A DNA stretch of 61,395 nucleotides, the filler included, from Dimargaris cristalligena (lineage: Eukaryota): NCBI GenBank assembly GCA_003614675.1. It is 4 parts of 4 records of this genome, joined end to end, with 100 filler letters (N's around TTAATTAATTAA, not from the genome) between each part and the next. Parts side by side here need not be neighbours in the genome. Positions count along the whole stretch, not along the records: positions 30,766 to 46,031 come from ML002900.1; 3 more parts are not named here. One strand, written 5' to 3'. Below the pieces are notes generated by a model. The model did no database searches. It saw only the letters and a program-made list of their open reading frames with translations, and was not told where the DNA came from. Positions 15,029 to 50,787 of the stretch are shown here, piece by piece; positions within the stretch are counted from its first letter, which is position 1; every line of letters starts with the position of its first letter. A program made the position numbers and the translations under genes.

Positions 15029-15100
15029 TGCGTTGACGGGGAATCGAACCCCGACCACATGCTTGGAAGGCATGTATGATAACCATTTCACTATCAACGC
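15029..15100 (-). tRNA. tRNA-Gly (anticodon TCC), intronless
   Basis: Minus strand GCGTTGATAGTGAAATGGTTATCATACATGCCTTCCAAGCATGTGGTCGGGGTTCGATTCCCCGTCAACGCA. Acceptor stem GCGTTGA/TCAACGC, anticodon loop CT-TCC-AA, T-loop TTCGATT, followed by a T6 Pol III terminator. Confidence 0.97.
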
Positions 15101-15299: not shown

Positions 15300-15399
15300 N
15301 NNNNNNNNNNNNNNNNNNNNNNNNNNNNNNNNNNNNNNNNNNNTTAATTAATTAANNNNNNNNNNNNNNNNNNNNNNNNNNNNNNNNNNNNNNNNNNNN
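15300..15399. other. Assembly spacer (44N-TTAATTAATTAA-44N)
   Basis: Identical 100-nt construct at three places; TTAATTAATTAA gives stops in all six frames. Confidence 0.97.
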
Positions 15400-17150: not shown

Positions 17151-17741
17151 CTCTAGTGGCCTCTTATCCCGGCCCACTTCCCAATGAGGAACTTCCTATT
17201 TCGGGGGGCTTCTCCAATCCTGTAGCCATTCAATAATCATATCCTTCTAGACCATATATTACATTGAATTATTGGGCCCTATTTGTTCGTCATCCGATCG
17301 ATTAGGTCACTCAGACTAATGGCTGAGTATCTCTACACATTCTTTCAACTATTTTATTCTTTCTGTGCTATGTTTAAGGTTTTAAGTATTTGCATTAATC
17401 TAGACCATCTAATAGAGGCATACCTTTTGTAAATAAATATTTTATTCAAGACATATTCCCCTATATCTTAGTCGATTTTATCCACTTTTGTAGCCTGTAC
17501 GCTTAGCTAACGTTTGGACATTGCTCATTGACCCGACTGCTTGTGCCCAATTCATCGCTGCACCTAATGATGATTTGCATTGCCCAATCCCTATTTATTC
17601 TGGATCTTAGTGTGTCAAAAAATGGTATTAATCAGGCTTAGAATGGATGCATCGGTTAGCTTCTGCCATATCTTTATATCGCCAATTGTTAAACAATGGC
17701 GATACATGGCCCGTTCCAATATGAATGCCCCTTATCGCTTG

Positions 17742-17742
<1 letters not shown>

Positions 17743-17776
<34 letters not shown>
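17743..17776. repeat. (AT)n microsatellite
   Basis: About 17 TA units. Confidence 0.9.
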
Positions 17777-17778
<2 letters not shown>

Positions 17779-17925
17779 GTCAGGTTAATTGGACCATCTA
17801 GTATAGGGATGGTGGTATTTTAATAGTTGATGGGGCAGAATATCTGATACCAAATGGCCGACTATCATTGAATATGACTAACGTTTGAAAGCAATCCTCA
17901 CCCTCAACTCTAGTACAGGCTTCAT

Positions 17926-19640
17926 TTGAATGCTAACTGTATTGTTGTTAAAATGCCTTACCTAAATGAAGCAGTAATAGGCGACAGAATACCAATAGTG
18001 GCGATGCTATTAGCAGAGATGGACACCAGAGTCCAGTATTATTATATGGAGGAGGTAAAATCTGGCGACATAGCGAACAATGCATTAATTGAGACTGGTA
18101 TTCATGGTTAAAATTAAACACCCCACCCATTTCCCAGTAGATATACCATTTGAAGTTCATGGTTGGGTGAATAATTTTCTTGCCATGGTTTTTGCTGCGT
18201 ATTATAATATGATTTACTACAACAAGGTCCTCTGTCCCAGTAGTTATTATCTGAATAATGCTCTCCTGAATTAAAGTGACTTTCCCTCGGCCACTCCTGG
18301 TGCCGTAGAACCCGGCTATCCTACCCCGGCCAATACTTGAAGGATCCTTCTAGTTCCCCACTAGAGCCTTCCGAGCACCAGTATATACCTTCTAGAACGC
18401 CGTTGCTTTTCTTAGAATGCCCTCCAGCCCCGTTTCCATACTTTTAAACACACCTAAGCTACAGCATTCTATCCCTTGGCTTATTAGTAATCCAGTTTAT
18501 TCGAATGAATTCTAATCCACTGTCCCTGAATAAGGACCCCGTGCTGAGATCCGTATACACCAGTATATCCCCCACCATCACCAATTGTGCTCTACTAATA
18601 AGTCCCGGTTGCAATGAATCTAGTAATTGTAAAAATTAGAAAACCTACTGCATGGACTCTGATGCGGAATTATAGTAGTAAATCACCACGATATGGATTA
18701 CATTGTTATAAACCCAGCTTGACAATTAGTCCCCTTTAATCCACCGTTCGTCCCAGCACCTATTTGATTGGCTTAATTAATTGAACGGTATTGTACTAGA
18801 ACCAACATCTATGCTAAAATATAACTGGCGCCCTTAGATCGGCACCGACTGGAGCAGTGGCAGCCACTTTGGGAAACCTAGATCCCGGGACCAGAAACTT
18901 GTGCTCGGCGTGGACTATTCCTATCTGGATTTTGGACTGGGGCAGGCTGGGCCACCAGGGAATATTCTGGAATCCCTGATGACACATGGTAGATTATACA
19001 CGCGGAATGGACTCTGGTTAAGTGGCAACGTGGGCAAGATATACATTGATATCGGTAAAACTGGTAATGGACCGAATAATATATACCAGTTTGTCTTTAT
19101 TAAGGGTATGGTTGCAGTGTATTTACAAGAAAATTGGGAATAGAGGAAATAAAAGCTGGCAACCTAGTAGTGCCCAAGGCTGATCTGGCCAATGGGTAAG
19201 GGTAGGTGTCACTATAGCACCAGGTTATACAATGGACAACCATGAAGAATGAATATGGGAGAAGTTCATTCAGGCTGTATAATGAAAAATCCATTGGATG
19301 AGGCCAATATTACTGGTTAAAAGCTATTCTCACATATATTCGCCCATACGCGTATTGTGTAAAACCTTATACAGCTGGTTTGAATTTCATCCATATAAAT
19401 AACTAAGAACACACACAAAAATAATGATAGCGGCTCTGGGGTACAAATGCTGGAGATACACCTCAACCTCATATACCTTAGAAGTATTCCAAATAATATA
19501 ATGAATGCTGGAATACTAGCCCAGACCACCGAAGTATGTCAGTATGAGTGGAAGGGTGAAGACCTACCTCTGGTGGCGGCCGTCACCATTTCCAAAACTA
19601 GAATAGCCTGGCTGGGGTATGCTTTTGAGGTCTAAGCAGG
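17926..19640 (+). pseudogene. Probable decayed gene (fragmented ORFs in shifting frames), interrupted by a MITE
   Basis: Successive short protein-like ORFs (17926, 18089, 18901, 19447) on one strand, with a MITE at 19253. No recognisable domain. Confidence 0.25.
19253..19396 (+). mobile_element. ~140-bp MITE family, reference copy
   Basis: Imperfect ~25-bp TIRs (GGGAGAAGTTCATTCAGGCTGTATAA / TTATACAGCTGGTTTGAATTTCATCC) flanked by ATAT on both sides; non-coding; many related copies in the window. Confidence 0.85.
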
Positions 19641-22618: not shown

Positions 22619-23536
22619 TGGGTGAAATTCCAAACAGCTGTATAAGGTTTTACATAATATGTGTGTAGTGCCATCCGGAGGTTGGCACTTATCCCCAAAC
22701 TATGGATAGCCAGTCCTCATTGTCAGAGGGTGGAATATGCCGTGACATGTAATGGTGGTATCACTCCCACCATTTACCCACAAAAAATATATAAATATAT
22801 ATATATATACTGCCTATACTGTGGCATATACAAAAACTAACAAAATATTATTCATTTCTTTATACTCATAGTTTGCATTAAAAAGCCCACTGTTTTCTTC
22901 CTTACATTTAAAAGTCTGACCTGTTTTTCGGTGGATTTCTTATCATTCCATTTTATTCTATTCTTGACCTTCCTTCTATGTCCCTTCTCTTGTATCCAGT
23001 GGCCCCTAAGGCCCATAGGATGGTTGCATAAGTAGCCAGTGAATTCCCGCTCATTTTAAAAAAGAATCATCATTCATATCATTTTGAAACTCATAACTCT
23101 ACCACCCCTTAAGCCCAGTCCTGAATTTTTTATTGATCATTTTTGTATTATTTACCACTACTGTCTCTATTCATTTTATTTATTCTCAATAAAACCTTCA
23201 TATCACTTGTCATATCCTGCCCCCATCCTCTGTCCACTCCACCGACCACTCGCCTCCTGCAAAACCCCACTATATCAACATCCAATTCTGCCCCAGTCTC
23301 CTCCTACTCCGCAAACCTCCCATCTTCTGCCACCAGGGAACTGGCCACTACAACTTCAGGCCGTGTTGACAAGGAGGCCACTGCCTCCTCGGGAATCCTG
23401 AAGGCTGTCAACAATTGGCCGGACATCCCGGGTAGTACACATGTATGGGCAAATATATATGAGAGTAGCTTTTAACTAGTAATATTGGCCTCAACCAATG
23501 GATTTTTCATTATACAGCCTGAATGAACTTCTCCCA
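22619..23536 (-). mobile_element. MITE copy split in two (22619-22663 and 23440-23536) by a nested insertion
   Basis: The two pieces join to give the full reverse complement of the 19253-19396 element. Confidence 0.85.
22664..23439 (+). mobile_element. 776-bp solo-LTR-like insertion with 4-bp target-site duplication
   Basis: TGTAGT...GTAGTACA termini, internal TATA-rich tract (~22790) and AATAAA (~23189). Flanks TGTG and CATG are both CpG-decay products of the CGCG at this position in the intact MITE. Confidence 0.75.
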
Positions 23537-29153: not shown

Positions 29154-29722
29154 TGGCCCAGGCTGGTTGAGTTCTGGGCGGTATCATTCAAATGTTTTCT
29201 ATATATATATATATCTTTTACTTATAGTCCTTGCCCCTCAAAAGATTACCGCATTCCCAACAAAAGTAATTTAAATATACATTTATATATATATATATCA
29301 ATGATAAATATATCTATATCTATATATTTAAAGATGATGTATAGCTCATATCTTCACACTTGAGAGGTGATCCTTTTTGGCCTGTGGGGAACCGCATACG
29401 CACATCAATACAATAAACCCCCAAACATATAACGTGAAAATAGTCGTCCTTCAGGCAATTGAATAGCACCCACTACATGTCCTTTGTCTCGATCAATCAT
29501 CCACTAATAGTCTAGTTGTAAGAAAGGGTTGGGTTATATATGGGGGACTGTTGCCGAATTGGTAAGAAGTACCCGGGGACACTTCCGTTATCCTTGCTCT
29601 TGTTAAAAGAGCGCGAGATATGAGCGAATTTATTAAGGAATGAATATAATTAGCATGAACTTGCTGAAGCGATGTGGACGCTAGTAAACTGGAGAATCAG
29701 ATTGCGTAACCGATACTTATAT

Positions 29723-29857
29723 ATATAGGAGAGGTTCAACCAGGCGTTCTATCGAAAAATCTATTGGATGGGGTCAACATCTAAGGTTAATATTAATCAA
29801 TACCCCATATACATGTTATGTAAAACTTTATACAGCTGATCCGGATTTCACCTATAT
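29723..29857 (+). mobile_element. MITE copy (diverged)
   Basis: ATAT-AGGAGAGGTTCAACCAGG...GAAAAATCTATTGGATG...TTATACAGCTGATCCGGATTTCACCT-ATAT. Confidence 0.8.
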
Positions 29858-30665: not shown

Positions 30666-30765
30666 NNNNNNNNNNNNNNNNNNNNNNNNNNNNNNNNNNN
30701 NNNNNNNNNTTAATTAATTAANNNNNNNNNNNNNNNNNNNNNNNNNNNNNNNNNNNNNNNNNNNN
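30666..30765. other. Assembly spacer
   Basis: 44N-TTAATTAATTAA-44N. Confidence 0.97.
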
Positions 30766-33047: not shown

Positions 33048-33317
33048 GGTGGGGCGGAATCGGGGAGTGGAGTTGGGCAAAGGGAATGGGCGAGAGGGAA
33101 TGGTTTAAACTCCTTGAAGCAAGTCAGTGAAGGAATGGGGAGAGTGAAAGTGAGGGTTGATAAGTTGGGCCTTGGACGACAACGACAACTAGGGAGATCC
33201 CGTAGACTGGGAGCGACGTCATTGACCCAAGAATAAAAGCCAACAACCTCTACAAAAAGGGTGTTTTATAGAGTAAGTATGTATATCTGACTAAGTGGAC
33301 TTTCTGAGTTAAGGTAG

Positions 33318-33342
<25 letters not shown>
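33318..33342. repeat. (AT)n microsatellite in the shared divergent promoter of the two ERV14 paralogs
   Basis: TA run roughly midway between ATGs 33047 (-) and 33691 (+). Confidence 0.85.
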
Positions 33343-33349
<7 letters not shown>

Positions 33350-33690
33350 TCCCTTAGCCTGCCTATAGGCTAGATCATCGAGCATCCCAGCCATTGTGTT
33401 GGCTGTTAAGCCTGACCCAGCGCAGTGTACCCCGCGCGCCGCATATAGTATCTTCCTTCCATTATTATTCCGCCCTGGTACCAAAGAGAAAAGGCCCAGC
33501 AGAGCGCCCCACTCCACACCCCAGTCTTTGTTCTCCCAGCCTCTCATATTTGCCCCTGGAGTTCTTTTTGGGGGGTTTCCTTCTTCCCTAACTTAACTTT
33601 AGCCCTAGCTCTCCTTTTATGTTCTTCTTTCCTTGAGTCCGTACATTCCCCCCCTATTTCCTCCCCCTCCTCTCTATATCTCCGGTCAGC

Positions 33691-37853: not shown

Positions 37854-39224
37854 GCGTAGTGATATTTGAACTAGCCCGGCATTATTACCGACATGCCTTG
37901 TTCTTTTGGTATAAAGGAGTATTTTTAGTCTTGGTTTAGAATTAAATATAGAATTTTAGGTTATTTATTGAGATTGTTACCACGCCGCCAACTTAAATGA
38001 GATACGATACCTTAGACTAGGTTGTAAGGTAGTTACAATATTAAGATGCATGGTTTCGGGACAATGACCAACATTTGAATGGTTTTTAAGCAGCGCTAGG
38101 AAGGAAATCGCCGCTTATTTTGATTTAGGCCGAACTCAATTTCCTTATTCCTTGAGCGTGGAGTGTCTTTATTTTACTTGTGGGCACTGGTCGAGTTGTA
38201 TCAACCCCAGGTTAAAGTCGATCGCGAAACAAGGAAACTTATACACCGTACCACGGGTTCTAGAGGGCGACAACTCTTGTTGTGGTTATTTACAATGGAT
38301 AGTTACGGCCAGACCTGTGTCGCTAGGGCAATGGCCAATGCAAGGCACCAGTAATTTCGGACATTACTTGGCTGGTGAGCGGTGTTATACCGCAGTGAAC
38401 TCCAATGCTGGATAGGGAAGATGGACAGACTTCTGAAGCGGCGCGACACGATTCTATTTACCAGCCGGGGTCGGGGGAGGATCAAGCTTGTGATATACTA
38501 TGGGTGGTATGGTTAAATGTTATGGGCAAAATACAGCATAGCTGTATAAGAAATGTAATGAAATGAGGATGGTAAAACACAGGGGATTTGTTTAAAAGAA
38601 GTAAAATTAGTCCGTCAGTTAGATTTTTCGTTTGTAGTAGATCCAAAACTGGCTCTTATTTCAAAAGCTAGAGGGCTACCACTAAGTAGCATTTCATCAG
38701 CACAATCTGGCCACAAATCGAAAAAGGTGGTTGCTGGTTGTAGTATAGCTATAGACACCATGCAATGACTATTAAATTGCTAAATGCACACTTATTATAC
38801 AGTTGCATTAGGAAGTGTATAATAAAATATCCTGTGGATGATATATGGAACATTAACGATTGCCAGAACTCATTTCAATAAGCCCAATACAAAATGCATA
38901 TACCTAGAAAATACCCCCCTTTACTGGAGTATATTAATCAACCCGGTATTATAGATATTAGTGTGGCCACTTCAACCAGCTAATTCAATAGTTACAATCA
39001 AAACTAGCAAAGGGCCTTATCCTAAGTCTTTCTATTCTTTGCGTATCCACTATGACATTATAATTTCTCTTTATCCTACACTAAATCCGAAACATATACA
39101 TGCATATTTATTATTAAAAAGTCCATCAAACAAAATGGCTAATATAAATAGGAGGTATTCTCACATTGAAACATAACTTTATATACAAAATTATAAGGTA
39201 AACTAAACTAAATGTACCGATTTA

Positions 39225-39630
39225 ACCTGCTCATTGGCAGGCACCACCTTGGTTTGTATTAAACGGTGGCTGGTACAATCGGTAAGCCCCTATCTGCGTC
39301 AGACAGGGGCTTGTCCCGTTCTGATGTCGGGTAATCCCTCCCCAGGACAAAAGGGGGATTACCAATAACACCCCCTTGGGGGTGAGTATCTTGTTTTGAC
39401 ACCTGCATTACTGCAGGGCGCGACCTGTATACTGGTGGACAGGTCACTGGGTATTGTAAAAAGGGCCCCGGGACGGCCATTGGGAGGGGAGAAGAAGGGA
39501 GGGGAGGGGGGATATATTCTTTAAAAAAAAAGGAGAAAGAAGAGGGAAGGTGGCAATCATGTTGTTAGGAGGTGGGGATGGTTTGCACATTGGGACATCC
39601 AAGTAATTGAAAAATAATGATTGTATATTT
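39225..39630 (-). ncRNA. Candidate structured ncRNA (tandem hairpin array), copy 1; overlaps the 73-aa ORF 39259-39480
   Basis: Eight adjacent stem-loops at 39225-39447. G-U wobbles and a GUAA tetraloop work on the minus strand only, and there is a compensatory pair versus copy 2. TATAAATA at 39650-39657; the 5' end is an estimate. Confidence 0.6.
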
Positions 39631-39649
39631 GGAAAGGATTTTGGTGCAC

Positions 39650-39657
39650 TATTTATA
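39650..39657 (-). promoter_or_regulatory. TATA box
   Basis: CTGTATAAATAGTGCACCAAA is identical in both duplicate copies (also 44871-44878). Confidence 0.6.
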
Positions 39658-40709
39658 CAGCACTTAGCCGAAGGCTTCATTAGCCAAGTGTGGGATAGGT
39701 TGGCCCCACTTCTCCCACCAAAGTAAACTATATTTCTAGTTCTATTCTATAGGTTTATCAGGGACACAATGGCCTAGTTGCTAATGAGAATTAGGAAAGG
39801 GACGAGGAGTTTTATTCACGCCCACCCATTCCCTTGAACGATTCAGTTTTGTAGCATGGAAGTCAACAATAAGCCATTCGGTGTTAAAACTAGTCACTGG
39901 GGTATAATTATGCACAATGTATTGATGCACCGGTTTAACCCCCTGATTATGACACCAGATTCTGGGATATGACCATAACAGGAGTATCCTGACTGGCGGT
40001 TTTTTATATAATACTTGCTAATTGCGATGAATATTCCGTGAAGCACCCTACAATGTCAGGCCTATTTTCACACGAAGATAACCATCCCAGTGAATAACAT
40101 TAGGCCCCATATTGGAAAAGGCCGTGTGCCTTATTTAGGAAGATGCGTCCCCGTCAGTCACTACAATGCAATGTCGATGGATCCTGTTGCACTTCACTCG
40201 ACTAACTGGTCCGCCGATTAAATGGCCACAGTCTAGCTATAATATGGACAATCCCCAATGCCGTGCTCTTAATAGGAAGAGCGAAGCCTTCCGGCCTTCA
40301 GTAATACATTCTAGCCGTAGATGGTCCGCGAATTGCTGATAATCGCCCTAGTACAATTGTGGTGAATCTTGTAAATTAAGTTACTTTCGTTTATTTATTT
40401 TTAGATTTCGGCACTCATGTTAGTCGGAGAAAGGTATAGTGAAATTGATTGATGCATGGCTCACTGACTGCATCCCACTTTCATGGGCCGAATTATATGC
40501 TGGTATCCTAGACTATTCTTCACGCTATAACGCTGTTGCCATTAATTTTCCAAGTAATACACCAGTTGCTGGGCCGTAGTTATACTTTGGTGGCCTTTTA
40601 TATGTGCATAGTAATACCACCCTCCTTGTTGTTTTTTATGGCTTTGTCCACCTCCTAAAACACGGAGTGCTAAAGGGATGACTGACGCAGAAACTACTCG
40701 TTAAGTAGG

Positions 40710-40990
40710 ATATGGGTAAAATTCCGCCCAGTTAAATATGGGAGAAATTCAACCAGGCTGAATAACGAAAAATCCGTTGGATGAGGTAAATACTACTGAT
40801 TAAAGTTGAATAACTCGCCTATTCTCTTATGCACATACCATGTAGAACCTTATACAGTTGGGTCGAATTTCACCCATATAGTTTTAAATGATATATATAT
40901 GGGAAAATAAACGGGAAATTCATTTCCATCCTGGCATTTTTGCCTCATCCAATAGTGTTTTCGGTATACAACCTCGTAGACTATCTCCTA
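40710..40990 (-). mobile_element. Older MITE copy interrupted by a younger copy of the same family
   Basis: 40710-40739 plus 40880-40990 align to the reverse complement of the reference MITE. Confidence 0.75.
40736..40879 (+). mobile_element. MITE copy nested in opposite orientation
   Basis: ATAT-GGGAGAAATTCAACCAGGCTGAATAA...TTATACAGTTGGGTCGAATTTCACCC-ATAT; absent from the paralogous site near 45940. Confidence 0.85.
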
Positions 40991-43397
40991 AAGCAACTTC
41001 CAAAAGATAAGAGTATGTTGAACCTAAATAGACAATATTAGACTGTACAATAATCGCTTTATATTCATATAATTGGCCATAGTCGACGGGAATTTCAAAC
41101 AATCAAGAGGCAAATAATTTTAATCGGACTTAGTAATAGCTGCCAGTTTAGGTAATGACGCGAACTCGTTAAAATCCAAATATATACAGTGGGGCACAAA
41201 TGGTTTTTTTAAACTGTAGGATCGGGTGTAACTCAGGCATATATCAGCAAAATCCGTGGGGTAGTCGAGTCCACACACACTCAGAAATACTGCCGGCCAA
41301 GATCTGTTTACTGTTGAGAAGAGATCGCGAGAATTGGAGCGGATTAGATTGGGAACAGAGACCACCTGCACAGGTGATATACTTGGGATTTGTTAATATG
41401 ACCGAGTTGCCCTCGGGATTTCTTTGAATCACTGCCTTAAATAGTGGGCTTATTAGTTCCGGTGGGCTTGTTCTGTTGATCAGGAAGGACCTAAGGAAAG
41501 AAGTTGGCGCAGATGAAGCACTTAGGTATTTGAGAGGTAGTCTGCGAACTGCTAACCGGAGTGGTGGCCATAGTGGTAATAGCACAGTAAGTGCCCAGAA
41601 TCAAAATCTTCTTAGGCAATATGAAAGCTATAGTGAGTTGGATGGGATATGATGGAATGGAATGGAAGATCAGGGTATTTTAATAGTCTGGCTATTTAGT
41701 AGAAATACTAATGTGTGTATGTATTGTGCCAGTGGTTTGAGGCCCCTCCCTCCTGGGACTAAGGCTGGGGTTGGGCCCCTTGTCCTCCCCAGGGTCAGCA
41801 GGGTCACTGGACATCAGGTTTGGAGGGTTCAAGGCACCTGGGTGTAACATGGAGAACTCGGGAAATAGTCCTTTAGCTAGGCAGATCAGATCAGAGCTGT
41901 GCTCGGAGGTTGAACTGGGGTATGGTGCAAAATGTTCCACACAAAATGGTCCTACACTCCCGTCATTAGAGTTAGGTGCTGGAGGAGCCATGGTGGTTAC
42001 ATGCTGAAAATAAGATAATGAAATTTAAGAAAACAAAAAATTGACTTCTGGTTGAAGTCCTTGACTGACGCTGGGTAAAACACTGGGTGAAGTTAAAATA
42101 TATATTTATTCTGGATAATAAAAACTTATCTTAAAAGTAACTTGCCATTTTAAAGGCCGGCTGGGGAAACTATATATATGCAAATTAATACTATGAACTT
42201 AGAGCTATACTACTACTTTAGGATGTCGTCCTCGGATGGACTAACAACCATAAAAAACCACGAAGGGAAAAACTGGCTGGGTCTTCAAGTTTGAACACTG
42301 TGAAAAAATAGAAAGAAAATATATATAGAAAATTGAAGACAAGATTGCCCTGGATCCACCGGGGCATTCTTGAAAGTAAGATACAGAAGAAAAGAATATG
42401 GGAAATGGAAGACATCGACATCACTCACTCATCCCTGTGTGAGCACTGTTCACTGCAAAGGCATAACTACGGATCTAGAGTGCGCAGGTGTCATGGGATG
42501 GAGTATAATGACTAATTAGTCTCATGGAAAGGGAAAATCATCCTGACCCTTGGCAGTACATATGAGTTGAATGCGGGGAATGTAGAATGTGATGGTAATA
42601 TTGATAATATTTTTAAAGAGGATGGTTCCCATTTTTTTATATCTAAATTGGCCAACCTTTGGACATGGTGCTCTGCCAATGCTGGGCTATGGCTTTTTGC
42701 TACCTCGGGCGTTTTCTTGGCTATGCCCTATTAATTACTACATCCCTAAGGGAAGATCCACATCCATACCTCCATACCCATATGACTTGCTGATCCTAGT
42801 GTTCTGCTGTCCTATGGGTCCACTTTTAATGCTTTAGTGCTCCTCCAATTTTACGTCATGTAGTTTTCATTTATTTATTCACAGAATAACCTCGGTGATA
42901 GGCTGGCTGCTGGAAATAAATTTCTAGAAAATGGTTAGGGGCTATTCTCAAGCAAACCATCATTGCCTTCAGTTAACTCATTATTAATATCCATGGATAG
43001 GATATTGAGTCATGCAATCCCTTTGTTGATGCTTAAATTGTCCCAATATAGTGTATGTACATAGCACAGATTGTCCTAAATACAATAAATATTTAGTAAA
43101 TAGCAAATCAACCGTATCGCGATAATGGTGGTGGATAATGTTTTGAAGAAATCGTACCCTAATCTACTGTCTTAACCTACACGTAGGCCGTTAGGCGGAC
43201 TGTCAGAAGGGACTTTGTGTGAGGCGATGGTTGTCTTGCCATAGTAAACTTTGGCTGTCTAGGCAATATTGGCCACCCTCTAGCGATTTATGGTCTATCA
43301 CAGGTATTACCTACCCAACCCCTGGCCAGCGTATGTCTAATAATAAGCCCATTTGGTTTACTTTACACTAGCTAATAAAAGAAAACGCTGGTTGAAC

Positions 43398-43539
43398 ATA
43401 TGGGGAGATTTCAACCCAACTATTCAGGGCTTTAACTAATGTGTATAGGCAAATATAAGGCAAATATTTTTTTAACCAGTGATTTTTACCTCATCCAATA
43501 TATTTTTAGTAATATAGTCGCGTTAAACCTCTGAAATAT
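43398..43539 (-). mobile_element. MITE copy (diverged)
   Basis: ATAT-GGGGAGATTTCAACCCAAC...TTTAACCAGTGATTTTTACCTCATCCAAT...-ATAT. Confidence 0.7.
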
Positions 43540-43794
43540 AGATATTCCAGTGTATGCAGGACATTCGAGGTGTTCAGTTGCTTTAAACGATCCAAGGGAT
43601 ACTATTTAGTGAAGTCACCATATAAATGCGTATTTGAATACAGCTGTGAAGGGCTTAATAGGGTAAATTTCTAGCTAAGCGGGAAATTGTACAATGTCCA
43701 ATCAAACTAACCTCACCAATCAAGCCTTCCAATTTACAGCCAGGCCACACCTATTTCTATGCAATACTCACTAATAGGTGTGCCAAATGACCCT

Positions 43795-46031
43795 TAAATT
43801 AATATGGGCAACGTTTATCACAATGGTATAAGATCTGGGATGATATATGGACAGTAAACTGTACCAGATCTTTGCTATATAATAGAACCAATGTGGACCC
43901 TTATTTCAAAATATAGGAAGACACCACCAAGTCATCTTTCATGAACACAGGCCGGTCTCACAAATTGTAAGAGAAACTTCTGGTTGGAGTATAGCTATAA
44001 ACATCACTATATTGTGATAAAAGTGCTAAATACATGTCCATCTTGCAAATGAATTAAGGTATGGATAACTAAATGGTAACTATTTAATATGTGAAACAAT
44101 GACTATTACGAAGTCTGTATATTCATGAAATGTCCAAAATTATCTCCTTGACAGGGGAATACTATCCACATTAGTAGTATGGCTTTCTCAACCAGCCAGT
44201 TCAAAATTTTCCATCGAAACTAACAAAGGGCCTCATCCAAAGACCACATCCTTCACGCAGCCACTATGGCATTATCATTACTATGGAACAGTCTAGATTT
44301 ATTTCCTTAGCATTTCTCTTTATTACATTCTACATCCGAAACATACATATGCCCAATTCCTTATTAATTCATCAAACACTTCGGCCAATATAAATAGGGT
44401 AGACTCCCACATCGAAAAACAATTTTATAAACAAAAATATTATATGTAAAATTAGAAATACACATTTAACCTGCTCATTGGCAGGCACCACCTTGGTTTG
44501 TATTAAACGGTGGCTGGTACAATTGGTAAGCCCCTATCTGCATCAGACAGGGGCTTGTCCCGTTCTGTTGTCGGGTAATCCCTCCCCAGGACAAAAGGGA
44601 GATTACCAATAACACCCTCTTGGGGGTGGATAGAATGTTTTATATCCTGTATTACTACAGGAAGCGACCTGTATACTGGTGGACAGGTCACTAGTTGAAA
44701 AAATGGCCTAAGGGCGGTCATTGGGAGGGGAGGGGGAGATATTTTTTAAAAAATTGAAAAATAGTGAATGTGGCAATTGTGTGGTTAGGAGGTGGGGATG
44801 GTTTGCACGTTGGGACATCCGAGTAATTGAAAAATGATGAGGGTAAATTTTGGAAAGGACTTTGGTGCACTATTTATACAGCACTTAACCAAAGGTTTCA
44901 TTAGCCAAGTGTGGGATAGGTTGGCCCCACTACCACCACCAAAGTAATCTACAGTTCTAGTTCTATTCTATAGGTTTATCAGGGACACAATGGCCTAGTT
45001 GCTAATGAGAATTAGGAAAGGGACGAGGAGTTTTATTCACGCCCACCCATTCCCTTGAACGATTCAGTTTTGTAGCATGAAAGCCAACGATAAGCCATTT
45101 GGTGTTAAAACTAGTTGTTGGAGTATAATGAGGCACAATGTATCGATACTATGACTTAATCCCCTACTTATATCACCCGATCATGGGATATACCCATAGC
45201 CGGGGCTTCCTGACTGGCGGTTTTTTATATAATACTTGCTAATTGCGATGAATATTCCGTGAAGCACCCTACAATGTCAGGCCTATTTTCACACGAAGAT
45301 AACCATCCCAGTGAATAACATTAGGCCCCATATTGGAAAAGGCCGTGTGCCTTATTTAGGAAGATGCGTCCCCGTCAGTCACTACAATGTAATGGTGATG
45401 GATCCTGTTGCACTTCACTCGACTAATTGGTCCGCCGATTAAATGGCCACAGTCTAGCTATAACATGGACAATTCCCAATGTTGTGCTCCTAATAGGAAG
45501 AGCGAAGCCTTCCGGCCTTCAGTAATATATTCTAGCCGTAGATGGTCCGGGCATCGCTGATAATCGCCCTAGTGCGATTATAGTAGATTGATTTCCTATA
45601 TTTTTTTTTTGGATTTTGGCATCCGTGGTAGTTGGGGTAGGGTGTGATGAACCAGAATAGTGCACGGCCCAGCAACTATATTATCTTTTCGTGGGTTGAA
45701 GGATACACTGGTATCTTGGACTAGTCTTCGCACTATACCATTGTTGCCACGATTTTTCCGAATTATACTACCACTGCTGGGCCGCAGTTTTATTTTGGCG
45801 GCTGTGTTTTCTCGAACATGAATATCCCCCCTATTATACGTAATTGCCTTGTCTATCTCCTAGGCCGCGGAGCGCTAGCACGACAGATGGTTAGGCAACA
45901 GTAGGTCATATAGGATATATGTGATATCCAGCTCACCTGGACATGTTTTTAATGATATAGGTATGGGAAATAACCGGGATACCCATTTTCAGCCAGGAAT
46001 GTTTGTCTCATCCATTGTATTATTATTTTTT
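43795..46031. repeat. Segmental direct duplication, copy 2 (ends at a gap); includes an uninterrupted old MITE at 45915-46031
   Basis: Colinear with 38515-40990. Confidence 0.93.
44469..44850 (-). ncRNA. Candidate structured ncRNA (tandem hairpin array), copy 2; overlaps the 72-aa ORF 44503-44721
   Basis: The same eight stems are present at 44469-44691, e.g. TCCTGTA-GTAA-TACAGGA versus CCTGCA-GTAA-TGCAGG in copy 1. Confidence 0.6.
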
Positions 46032-46131
46032 NNNNNNNNNNNNNNNNNNNNNNNNNNNNNNNNNNNNNNNNNNNNTTAATTAATTAANNNNNNNNNNNNN
46101 NNNNNNNNNNNNNNNNNNNNNNNNNNNNNNN
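46032..46131. other. Assembly spacer
   Basis: 44N-TTAATTAATTAA-44N. Confidence 0.97.
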
Positions 46132-47490: not shown

Positions 47491-47657
47491 ATTATACAGG
47501 CTGAATGAACTTCTCCCATATGTAGTCTAATGCAGGTGTACAATGAAAAATCCATTGGATGAGACCAATATTACTGGTTAAGGACAATTCTGCCACATAT
47601 TCACCCATACATGTATTATGTAAAATTTTATACAGCTGGTTTGAATTTCATCCATAT
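47491..47657 (+). mobile_element. MITE copy (47518-47657) abutting an inverted left-TIR fragment (47491-47520)
   Basis: AATGAAAAATCCATTGGATGAGACCAATATTACTGGTTAA...TTATACAGCTGGTTTGAATTTCATCCATAT, preceded by TTATACAGGCTGAATGAACTTCTCCCATA. Confidence 0.85.
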
Positions 47658-47792
47658 ATTCTTTACCCACACTTGGCCATTGGGGATGCTGGATTATACA
47701 GGTCTACATGAACAATAGAGAGATAGGGCTATACAACCACTTCATCGTAAAGTGCCCTCTTTTCATCGATATTAGTGTAATTTATTTGGGTT

Positions 47793-50560: not shown

Positions 50561-50650
50561 GTATATACATATAATATTTTTTTCAACTGAAGGGGTTTTG
50601 TATCCCCCCCCATCCCCATTCTTACGCGCGCGTAACGCCCCCACAAAAAA

Positions 50651-50787
50651 ATGGGAGAAATTCATCCAAGCCGTATAACGAAAAATCCACTAGATTCGGC
50701 CAATATTATAGTTAAAAATACATTTCCCATATATTTTCCCATTCACGTATAATGTAAACCCTTATATAGCTGGGCCGAATTTCACCT
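50651..50787 (+). mobile_element. MITE copy in the promoter region of the secreted zinc-finger gene
   Basis: ATGGGAGAAATTCATCCAAGCCGTATAACGAAAAATCC...CCTTATATAGCTGGGCCGAATTTCACCT. Confidence 0.8.

Follow-up and report, generated by a model that had tools for sequence, protein, structure and literature searches.

The Hairpin Locus and Its Repeat Unit

The stretch of DNA analyzed here (the window) comprises 61,395 bases, spacers included, from the genome of Dimargaris cristalligena (GCA_003614675.1), a member of Kickxellomycotina, and consists of four segments of ~15.27 kb. These are joined by identical spacers (N44-TTAATTAATTAA-N44) at 15300-15399, 30666-30765, and 46032-46131, and features are not readable across the joins. 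The third segment carries an array of eight short hairpins (H1-H8) on the minus strand, which is found twice: copy A at 39447-39225 and copy B at 44691-44469, with 223 nucleotides (nt) compared. A preliminary description of this DNA had proposed the two arrays as a gene pair belonging to an undescribed family of structured non-coding RNA (ncRNA). All eight hairpins are present at these coordinates in both copies, and their structure is confirmed as real and well beyond chance. The idea of a two-copy gene pair did not survive, since the arrays are part of a ~1.2-kb dispersed repeat with fuzzy ends in an AT-rich, repeat-rich island. The array is tentatively read below as a structured module of that repeat.

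The duplication measures ~1.64 kb, wider than the hairpin block, and its two copies are direct repeats 5.2 kb apart. In blastn alignments, 39063-40594 pairs with 44312-45802 (83.6% identity over 1538 nt) and 38956-39061 with 44172-44275 (73.6%). The core of the unit would extend from about 40352 to 39124 on the minus strand, and that of the second copy from about 45611 to 44370. As proposed, the order on this strand begins with a conserved block of ~700 nt ending in TATAAATA, followed by a variable pyrimidine tract, the hairpins, and an AU-rich tail with a UAUAUA/AUAAA-like motif; the hairpin block would thus be a structured 3' module of the unit. The TTTTGTATATAAAG motif of the tail could be a 3'-end signal. 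No further copies of the unit were found in the other three segments (blastn, nhmmer), and an nhmmer search with the upstream module returned only copies A and B in the window.

The TATA motif TATAAATA had been noted as an identical element upstream of both arrays. It does occur in both, 210 and 187 nt upstream of H1, and is common to the two copies because the whole region is duplicated. This 8-mer is not rare, having 11 occurrences in the window on both strands. The features of the locus are collected in Table 1.

Table 1. Features of the duplicated unit and of its hairpin array (positions in the window).
Feature	Position	Strand	Evidence and remarks
Hairpin block, copy A (H1-H8)	39225..39447	-	RNAfold -99.3 kcal/mol, z -6.06; top of 2676 scanning windows; 69 consensus pairs with copy B
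Hairpin block, copy B (H1-H8)	44469..44691	-	RNAfold -89.4 kcal/mol, z -5.57; H4 weakened to U-G pair; H3 shortened; 18/223 positions differ from copy A
Whole direct repeat, copy A	38956..40594	-	blastn
Whole direct repeat, copy B	44172..45802	-	blastn
Conserved upstream module, copy A	39574..40352	-	Carries TATAAATA at 39657-39650; A/B identity; depth ~3-8x flank in run X1
Conserved upstream module, copy B	44795..45611	-	Carries TATAAATA at 44878-44871; nhmmer match 45611-44795; blastn pairing with copy A
Variable pyrimidine-rich tract, copy A	39448..39573	-	Between upstream module and hairpins; low A/B identity, depth dip, replaced segments in other copies
AU-rich 3' tail of repeat core, copy A	39124..39224	-	Conserved TTTTGTATATAAAG motif; depth high down to ~39119
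73-amino-acid open reading frame through H1-H7, copy A	39259..39480	-	Probably not a gene
72-amino-acid open reading frame through H1-H7, copy B	44503..44721	-	Open reading frame

Folding and Strand Polarity

None of 200 shuffled sequences folded as well as the copy from which it was derived. The shuffle means were -69.2 kcal/mol for copy A and -62.5 kcal/mol for copy B, to be compared with the energies in Table 1. Both strands of the 61 kb were also scanned in 2676 scanning windows, each 223 nt long, and the folding energies were corrected by regression on composition. Copy A occupied ranks 1-3 of this composition-corrected scan and copy B rank 4. The next outliers outside both copies (17641-17863 and 33211-33433) each contain a (TA)n run. 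These microsatellites, at ~17740-17780 and 33300-33340, give z values of -3.5 and -4.5 against shuffles and are trivial self-complementary repeats. Within the 223-nt block the tetranucleotide CCTG is found five times. H2 reads CCCTGCAG-TAA-TGCAGG, and its GNRA loop (GUAA) is retained although the stem has changed between the copies. An 8-bp helix closing H7-H8 (39284-39277 with 39222-39215 in copy A) was considered and rejected because two of its eight pairs are broken in copy B.

The earlier statement that no known RNA motif was recognized in the array was borne out. At gathering thresholds, Rfam yields a single match in the whole window, a tRNA-Gly (TCC) at 15029-15100 on the minus strand, 200 nt from a segment end, which is also the sole ARAGORN match. 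A search of 38800-45300 against Rfam 15 at E<=10 returned only RFPL3-AS1_1, a chance match of 14 bits against a threshold of 70 bits, and no ribozyme families. No curated RNA family in Rfam 15 was found to resemble the hairpin array.

In RNA folds of copy A, the minus strand has an advantage of 10.8 kcal/mol over the plus strand (z of -6.06 versus -2.66). The plus strand reaches -88.5 kcal/mol, a value matched by one of 200 shuffles. On the minus strand, the 69 consensus pairs include six or seven of the G-U type; all imperfect pairs are of this type and none is A-C. The G-U pairs had been taken to fix the polarity of the array. Part of this argument holds, as the minus strand is indeed the more stable as RNA; however, the difference is nearly gone with DNA parameters, and only two of the G-U pairs lie inside a helix. 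The argument for polarity is genuine but of moderate strength.

These results bear on a rival explanation, which is a cluster of palindromes acting at the DNA level without an RNA role. The stems would then have come from template switching or from context-dependent transitions hitting both arms, or they would be signals for single-stranded DNA or protein binding. Such a cluster is rather unlikely. It agrees with the near-symmetric folds obtained with DNA parameters (z of -6.0 on the minus strand and -5.0 on the plus strand), and it accounts poorly for the greater RNA stability of the minus strand and for imperfect consensus pairs that are all G-U there, even if only two of these are helix-internal. 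Moreover, eight different stems in a fixed order are unlike one binding site repeated. Further evidence on this explanation comes from the differences between the copies.

Divergence Between the Copies

Over the 223 positions there are 18 differences between copies A and B. In the RNAalifold consensus, which was built from the same two sequences on which it was tested, 66 of 69 pairs are unchanged, one is changed on both sides, two are changed on one side (to U-G or U-A), and none is broken. The pair changed on both sides is the C-G to U-A pair of H2. This double change, the U-A pair added in copy B, and the C-G to U-G change in H4 were all described correctly at the outset. Unpaired columns hold 14 of the 18 differences and the 138 paired columns hold the other four. 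The binomial probability of so few differences in paired columns is 0.0007 per site, and 0.078 if adjacent changes are merged into 11 events. As for covariation, what stands of the earlier claim is one compensatory pair, that of H2, read from two copies; it is only one pair in 69, and the A-to-B mutation simulation (given with the interpretation below) is not significant. The evidence for RNA-level selection on these sequences is thin.

The H2 change has a simple description at the DNA level. A C>T in one arm of the palindrome is mirrored by a G>A in the other, each strand having its change in a CpA context, and the changes around H2 are clustered and mirror-symmetric (columns 29-30, 35, 42, and 47-50). 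A second case is found in a 4-bp palindrome at 39676-39666 (minus strand) just upstream of the TATA motif, which reads AGCC-UUC-GGCU in copy A and AACC-UUU-GGUU in copy B. Here the paired change (39675 with 39667) and the loop change at 39670 lie outside the proposed RNA, and the same three changes are seen in two to four other contigs in every run. Among the 40 best-supported of 375 contig differences, only those at 39386 and 39400 fall inside the hairpin block, both in linkers.

Both the mirror-site change of H2, at CpA/TpG sites, and the paired change upstream of the TATA motif count in favor of DNA palindromes. The distribution of transitions does so as well, most of them being at CpG and CpA sites, and according to published work replication template switching can create hairpins as well as changes that look compensatory (PMC8794818, in excerpt). 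Among the transitions between 38900-39960 and 44120-45180, CpG sites change most often (15 over 38 sites), with CpA at 33 over 130. The high CpG rate would fit cytosine methylation of the repeat. Repeat-induced point mutation was considered and rejected, with transitions to transversions at 93:76 and no strong CpA bias.

Conservation along the unit was followed as A/B identity in 60-nt bins, each named by its first base on the minus strand. From bin 40340 to bin 39680, 51-60 of 60 positions are identical in 11 of 12 bins, the exception being bin 39980 (41/60); bin 39621 has 55/60. Identity falls to 38-39/60, with 11-13 gap positions, in the bins of the pyrimidine tract (39561 and 39501), and is 47/60 in the bin of H1-H3 (39441) and 57-58/60 in those of H4-H8 (39381 and 39321). 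The outer flanks have 19-44/60. The 700 nt upstream of the hairpins are thus conserved as well as the hairpin block or better, which would not be the usual pattern for an RNA gene. Two stretches of ~120-130 nt on the minus strand, 39741-39870 and 40041-40160, are identical or nearly so between the copies, next to neighbors with an identity of 64-70%. Gene conversion or strong constraint may underlie this pattern, and no open reading frame (ORF) or fold accounts for these blocks.

A Multi-Copy Family in a Repeat-Rich Island

Contig depth was analyzed over 38300-41000 at a likeness of at least 80% in four DNA runs (X1, X2, X3, and X5), which represent at most three samples and two studies. At 38300-39118 one contig per run is found, at single-copy depth. 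Throughout 39119-40392, summed depth, which does not equal copy number, lies above the single-copy flank in every bin, by a factor of ~1.3-9 in X1 and 1.5-6 in X2. In the three deeper runs its maximum is at 39210-39300, with 1920 versus 212 in X1, 1605 versus 252 in X2, and 4204 versus 175 in X5; X3 has 775 versus 10.9 in this interval and its maximum (842) at 39665-39755. Independently of summed depth, a multi-copy reading is backed by variant letters, contig ends, and short contigs. Five different X1 contigs have a letter other than that of the window at position 39386, the single-copy contigs stop at 39153 (X1 and X2) or 39131 (X5), and many short contigs align at 80-95% identity. The ~1.2-kb repeat core (39124-40352) is multi-copy in all four DNA runs, and contigs break there.

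Contig joints further reveal that the family is a mosaic. Other copies skip or replace H1-H3 together with the pyrimidine tract (joints 39384>39591 and 39380>39721), the pyrimidine tract by itself (39448/39467>39546/39590), or H4-H6 (39280>39379). A further joint, 39910>40001, corresponds to the segment that is only 68% identical between copies A and B. The array of eight hairpins is therefore not fixed across the family, whose best-kept part is H4-H8 with the tail.

These observations bear directly on the possibility that the unit belongs to a host gene family for a structured ncRNA made by RNA polymerase II (Pol II). In that case the unit would be a promoter plus an RNA gene, and the hairpins either a scaffold for proteins or an RNA that is processed or exported. 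Such a family would be new, having no Rfam match. It would explain the very strong folding with its minus-strand bias, the GUAA loop of H2 kept through a change of its stem, the TATA motif and pyrimidine tract upstream with the AU-rich motif downstream, and the block-wise patchy conservation between the copies, which is not expected from neutral decay alone. Nevertheless, a host gene family is doubtful: the upstream 700 nt are conserved as much as the RNA or more, relatives skip or replace H1-H3 or H4-H6, one pair in 69 covaries and the simulation is not significant, and the unit lies in a gene-poor, repeat-rich island. An intron candidate in the 5' region of copy A (GTGCAA...CTAAC...AG) was rejected, the AG being absent in copy B.

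A more specific form of this idea is decidedly unlikely. It would see the array as a lineage-specific Pol II RNA family of the "beads-on-a-string" type in an early-diverging mycoparasitic member of the Kickxellomycotina, each copy having its own conserved 700-nt promoter. The conserved H4-H8 core with its CCUG/CAGG stems would then be a multivalent platform for RNA-binding proteins or the precursor of a processed or exported RNA.

Two other elements are found between the copies. At 40736-40939, 300 nt from the unit, lies a small element of ~145 nt (40736-40880) with an internal inverted structure. Its relatives in the window are at 19252-19397, 47530-47658, 50647-50786, 29720-29857, 23439-23524, 22619-22663, and 43410-43507. 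Its depth is ~200-280x the single-copy flank in three of four runs and ~780x in the low-coverage run X3, with joints between opposite strands; a miniature inverted-repeat element of very high abundance is its probable identity. The second is an ORF of 99 amino acids at 41695-41991 (minus strand), which has no Pfam domain and only two database relatives (73% and 66% identity), both hypothetical proteins of D. cristalligena. It is probably another repeated module of the island.

Housekeeping genes of eukaryotic type, each in one long frame, make up the large ORFs of the window: eIF3a, Sua5, a DnaJ protein, isocitrate/isopropylmalate dehydrogenase, a Myb protein, and YchF. The eIF3a of the window is matched more closely by the longer eIF3a chains of the Protein Data Bank (E 1e-163) than by a 964-residue chain (E 5e-111); we take the former to be mammalian and the latter to be that of budding yeast.

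Coding Potential of the Array

Both copies contain an ORF of 72-73 amino acids that begins directly behind the pyrimidine tract and stops midway through H7. This raises the alternative of a small protein gene with an mRNA beginning downstream of the pyrimidine tract, in which case the hairpins would be incidental. The frame is open in both copies, a 3-nt indel preserves it, and its ATG, just after the CT-rich tract, stands in the context CCCAATGGCC, which we take to resemble fungal start contexts. The pattern of differences is not that of a protein under constraint, as the ratio of non-synonymous to synonymous differences (pN/pS) is 0.99 (13.5 non-synonymous and 4.5 synonymous). Moreover, the ORF belongs to no Pfam family, and a six-frame search of the unit gave only DUF4948 at E 0.17. 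No protein of 40-128 amino acids shares words with it, none of 12 longer candidates reaches E<=0.01, and the Atlas holds no usable match. The Pro/Gly-rich composition is expected from CCC/GGG stems in any frame, and H7b and H8 lie past the stop codon. A small protein gene is highly improbable, and the ORF is treated as a by-product of the CCC/GGG-rich stems.

Three phmmer matches of the ORF were found among 1.84 billion representatives (E 7.7e-11, 8.1e-10, and 3.9e-4). They are long tandem-repeat proteins and were rejected as chance matches. The alignments span nine, seven, and three stretches, so that the two strongest E-values are sums over seven to nine weak stretches; against P0001 a single stretch has 22-25 bits, and the best one 23.5-24.6 bits.

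Nature of the Repeat Unit

The locus combines hairpin structure, duplication, and multi-copy status with the lack of any match to known RNA or protein families. The reading put forward here, tentatively and with less than even confidence, is that of a ~1.2-kb non-coding repeat whose hairpin array is a cis-acting structured module of a minus-strand transcript. This transcript would be a Pol II-type ncRNA of ~0.3-0.5 kb, in which the hairpins, above all H4-H8, may fold as independent stems. They could act in cis for the repeat, for instance in stability, 3'-end formation, or protein recognition. A priori, descent from a repeat is favored by the multi-copy, mosaic make-up of the family and by surroundings that are poor in genes and rich in repeats. 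A host RNA gene is judged less probable than a relic or a non-autonomous mobile or recombining (selfish) repeat. From the proposal of an undescribed structured ncRNA gene family, the unusual stability, the minus-strand bias, the lack of an Rfam family, and the duplication with an upstream TATA motif are kept; its other points are unsupported or weakened.

Several results weigh against the reading of the array as an RNA module of a mobile repeat. Energies computed with DNA parameters hardly differ between the strands (-50.8 kcal/mol on the minus strand versus -49.3 kcal/mol on the plus strand), so the DNA itself could be where the palindromes originate or have a role. In the simulation from copy A to copy B, a fold equal to or better than that of copy B is obtained with 18.5% of 400 random mutation sets and with 32.9% of 222 shifted real mutation patterns. 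In the reverse direction, mutated copy B never reaches copy A (0/400 random, 0/222 shifted). This asymmetry makes copy B look neutrally decayed from an A-like sequence, or copy A improved. Conservation between the copies is patchy, near 100% over blocks of 120-130 nt beside stretches of 64-68%, a pattern that would fit host-gene selection or gene conversion too. The multi-copy evidence from summed depth is subject to the limit given above. Finally, the unit has no sharp ends, A-B homology being fuzzy at the edges. Within 39050-40450 there are no terminal inverted repeats, only 12 weak inverted pairs of which none joins the unit ends, and no target-site duplication or primer-binding site could be read by eye. 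Because of the fuzzy ends, the lack of terminal inverted repeats, and the lack of a readable target duplication, the mobile status of the unit stays that of a candidate.

A more defined element was considered in the form of a plus-strand retroelement. In this scheme 39480-39550 would be the polypurine tract, and the long terminal repeat would extend from TGGCAAT at 39551 to CTAGTACA at 40352; the untranslated 3' end of the internal region would then, in reverse complement, be the hairpin block. The pyrimidine tract is, on the plus strand, a purine tract abutting TGGCAAT at 39551; its purine run (...GGAGAAAGAAGAGGGAAGG) comes directly before the TG, and the conserved module of copy A ends in CA at 40352. 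The direct repeats 5.2 kb apart and the multi-copy family would also be expected of such an element. However, the search between the copies (40400-44299, six frames, E<=1) gave no Pfam families, and with them no gag, pol, reverse transcriptase, or integrase. Copy B has GCG in place of the terminal ACA of copy A, no target duplication is readable, and inspection by eye found no conserved primer-binding site of the TGG type after 40352 or 45570. In addition, A-B homology extends beyond both proposed ends, the hairpin block has a depth at least equal to that of the proposed terminal repeat, and the plus strand folds worse as RNA. Taken together, these points leave a retroelement quite improbable.

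If the array is a true functional RNA, it would represent a new RNA class and show how independent stems, lined up in an array, can serve as a module. We know of no described ncRNAs from this fungal lineage. A repeat-borne palindrome cluster is judged more likely than a functional RNA. It would add a nuclear repeat family that is unclassified and interrupts short-read assemblies of the genome, and it would serve as a caution that strong folding z-scores and one "compensatory" palindrome pair do not establish an RNA gene.

Comparison With Known Systems

The small nuclear RNA, small nucleolar RNA (snoRNA), ribozyme (including hammerhead), signal recognition particle, RNase P/MRP, and telomerase RNA families of Rfam provide the first comparison. 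The size and hairpin content of the block are compatible with a small nuclear or nucleolar RNA, yet none of these families matches. A snoRNA is marked either by box C (RUGAUGA) and box D (CUGA) at its termini or by a hairpin-ANANNA-hairpin-ACA arrangement with pseudouridylation pockets. By eye, the block contains no RUGAUGA, its only CUGA is in the loop of H6, pockets inside its stems are absent, and copy B does not keep the ACA that follows H8; neither a C/D or H/ACA box arrangement nor an Sm site was seen. In metagenomes, the 37-nt pattern of H5-H6 gave no matches. Scans of viral and prokaryote genomes for two other conserved stretches gave none for either; these required exact matches and say little on diverged relatives. 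The H6 stem pattern had one match in metagenomes (L001), a terminator-like hairpin behind a coding region in apparently bacterial DNA. Only 32 nt match, and it was set aside as unrelated. A term search of the main text of PMC6784888, on the genome of a related fungus, gave nothing relevant on repeats, transposons, ncRNA, RNA-seq, or a transcriptome.

Among mobile elements, the unit shares with retroelement leaders and terminal-repeat RNAs its direct repeats 5.2 kb apart, its TATA motif followed by stem-loops, and its multi-copy status. It differs from them in having no gag or pol, fuzzy ends, and homology that goes beyond any candidate terminal repeat. Miniature inverted-repeat and foldback elements are likewise small, non-coding, palindrome-rich, and repeated, whereas the unit has no terminal inverted repeats, measures 1.2 kb, and has a several-fold depth versus the ~200-fold depth of its neighbor. 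Helitrons have a 5' TC, a 3' CTRR, and one hairpin 10-20 nt upstream of it, and insert at A^T. By eye, a candidate for such an end is present at 40347-40353 (CCCTAG|T, plus strand), with no GC-rich hairpin just upstream and no counterpart kept in copy B. Retrozymes and Penelope-like elements bear a hammerhead or another self-cleaving ribozyme in their repeat, and the region has no match to a ribozyme family at E<=10.

Hairpins produced by template switching (PMC8794818, in excerpt) resemble the locus in the mirror-symmetric changes of H2 and in the paired change of a second small palindrome. Template switching is, however, a mutational mechanism and not a family, and it leaves the fixed order of eight stems and the conservation of H4-H8 unexplained.

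The last comparison is with the GC-rich palindrome clusters of mitochondrial genomes, of which the PstI palindromes of Neurospora are an example. Repetitive and double-hairpin elements of this kind (PMC2800124, in excerpt) are like the locus in their clustered short GC-rich stems in AT-rich non-coding DNA, their multiple copies, and their CTGCAG-like cores. No single hairpins of the array were found elsewhere in the window (nhmmer, blastn), so these are not individually dispersed. Unlike the mitochondrial elements, the locus is nuclear, with a flank of single-copy depth beside nuclear genes, and it consists of eight differing stems in a fixed order within a 1.2-kb unit that has a promoter-like part. 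If the array is a palindrome cluster, it is a possible nuclear counterpart of the mitochondrial hairpin-forming elements.

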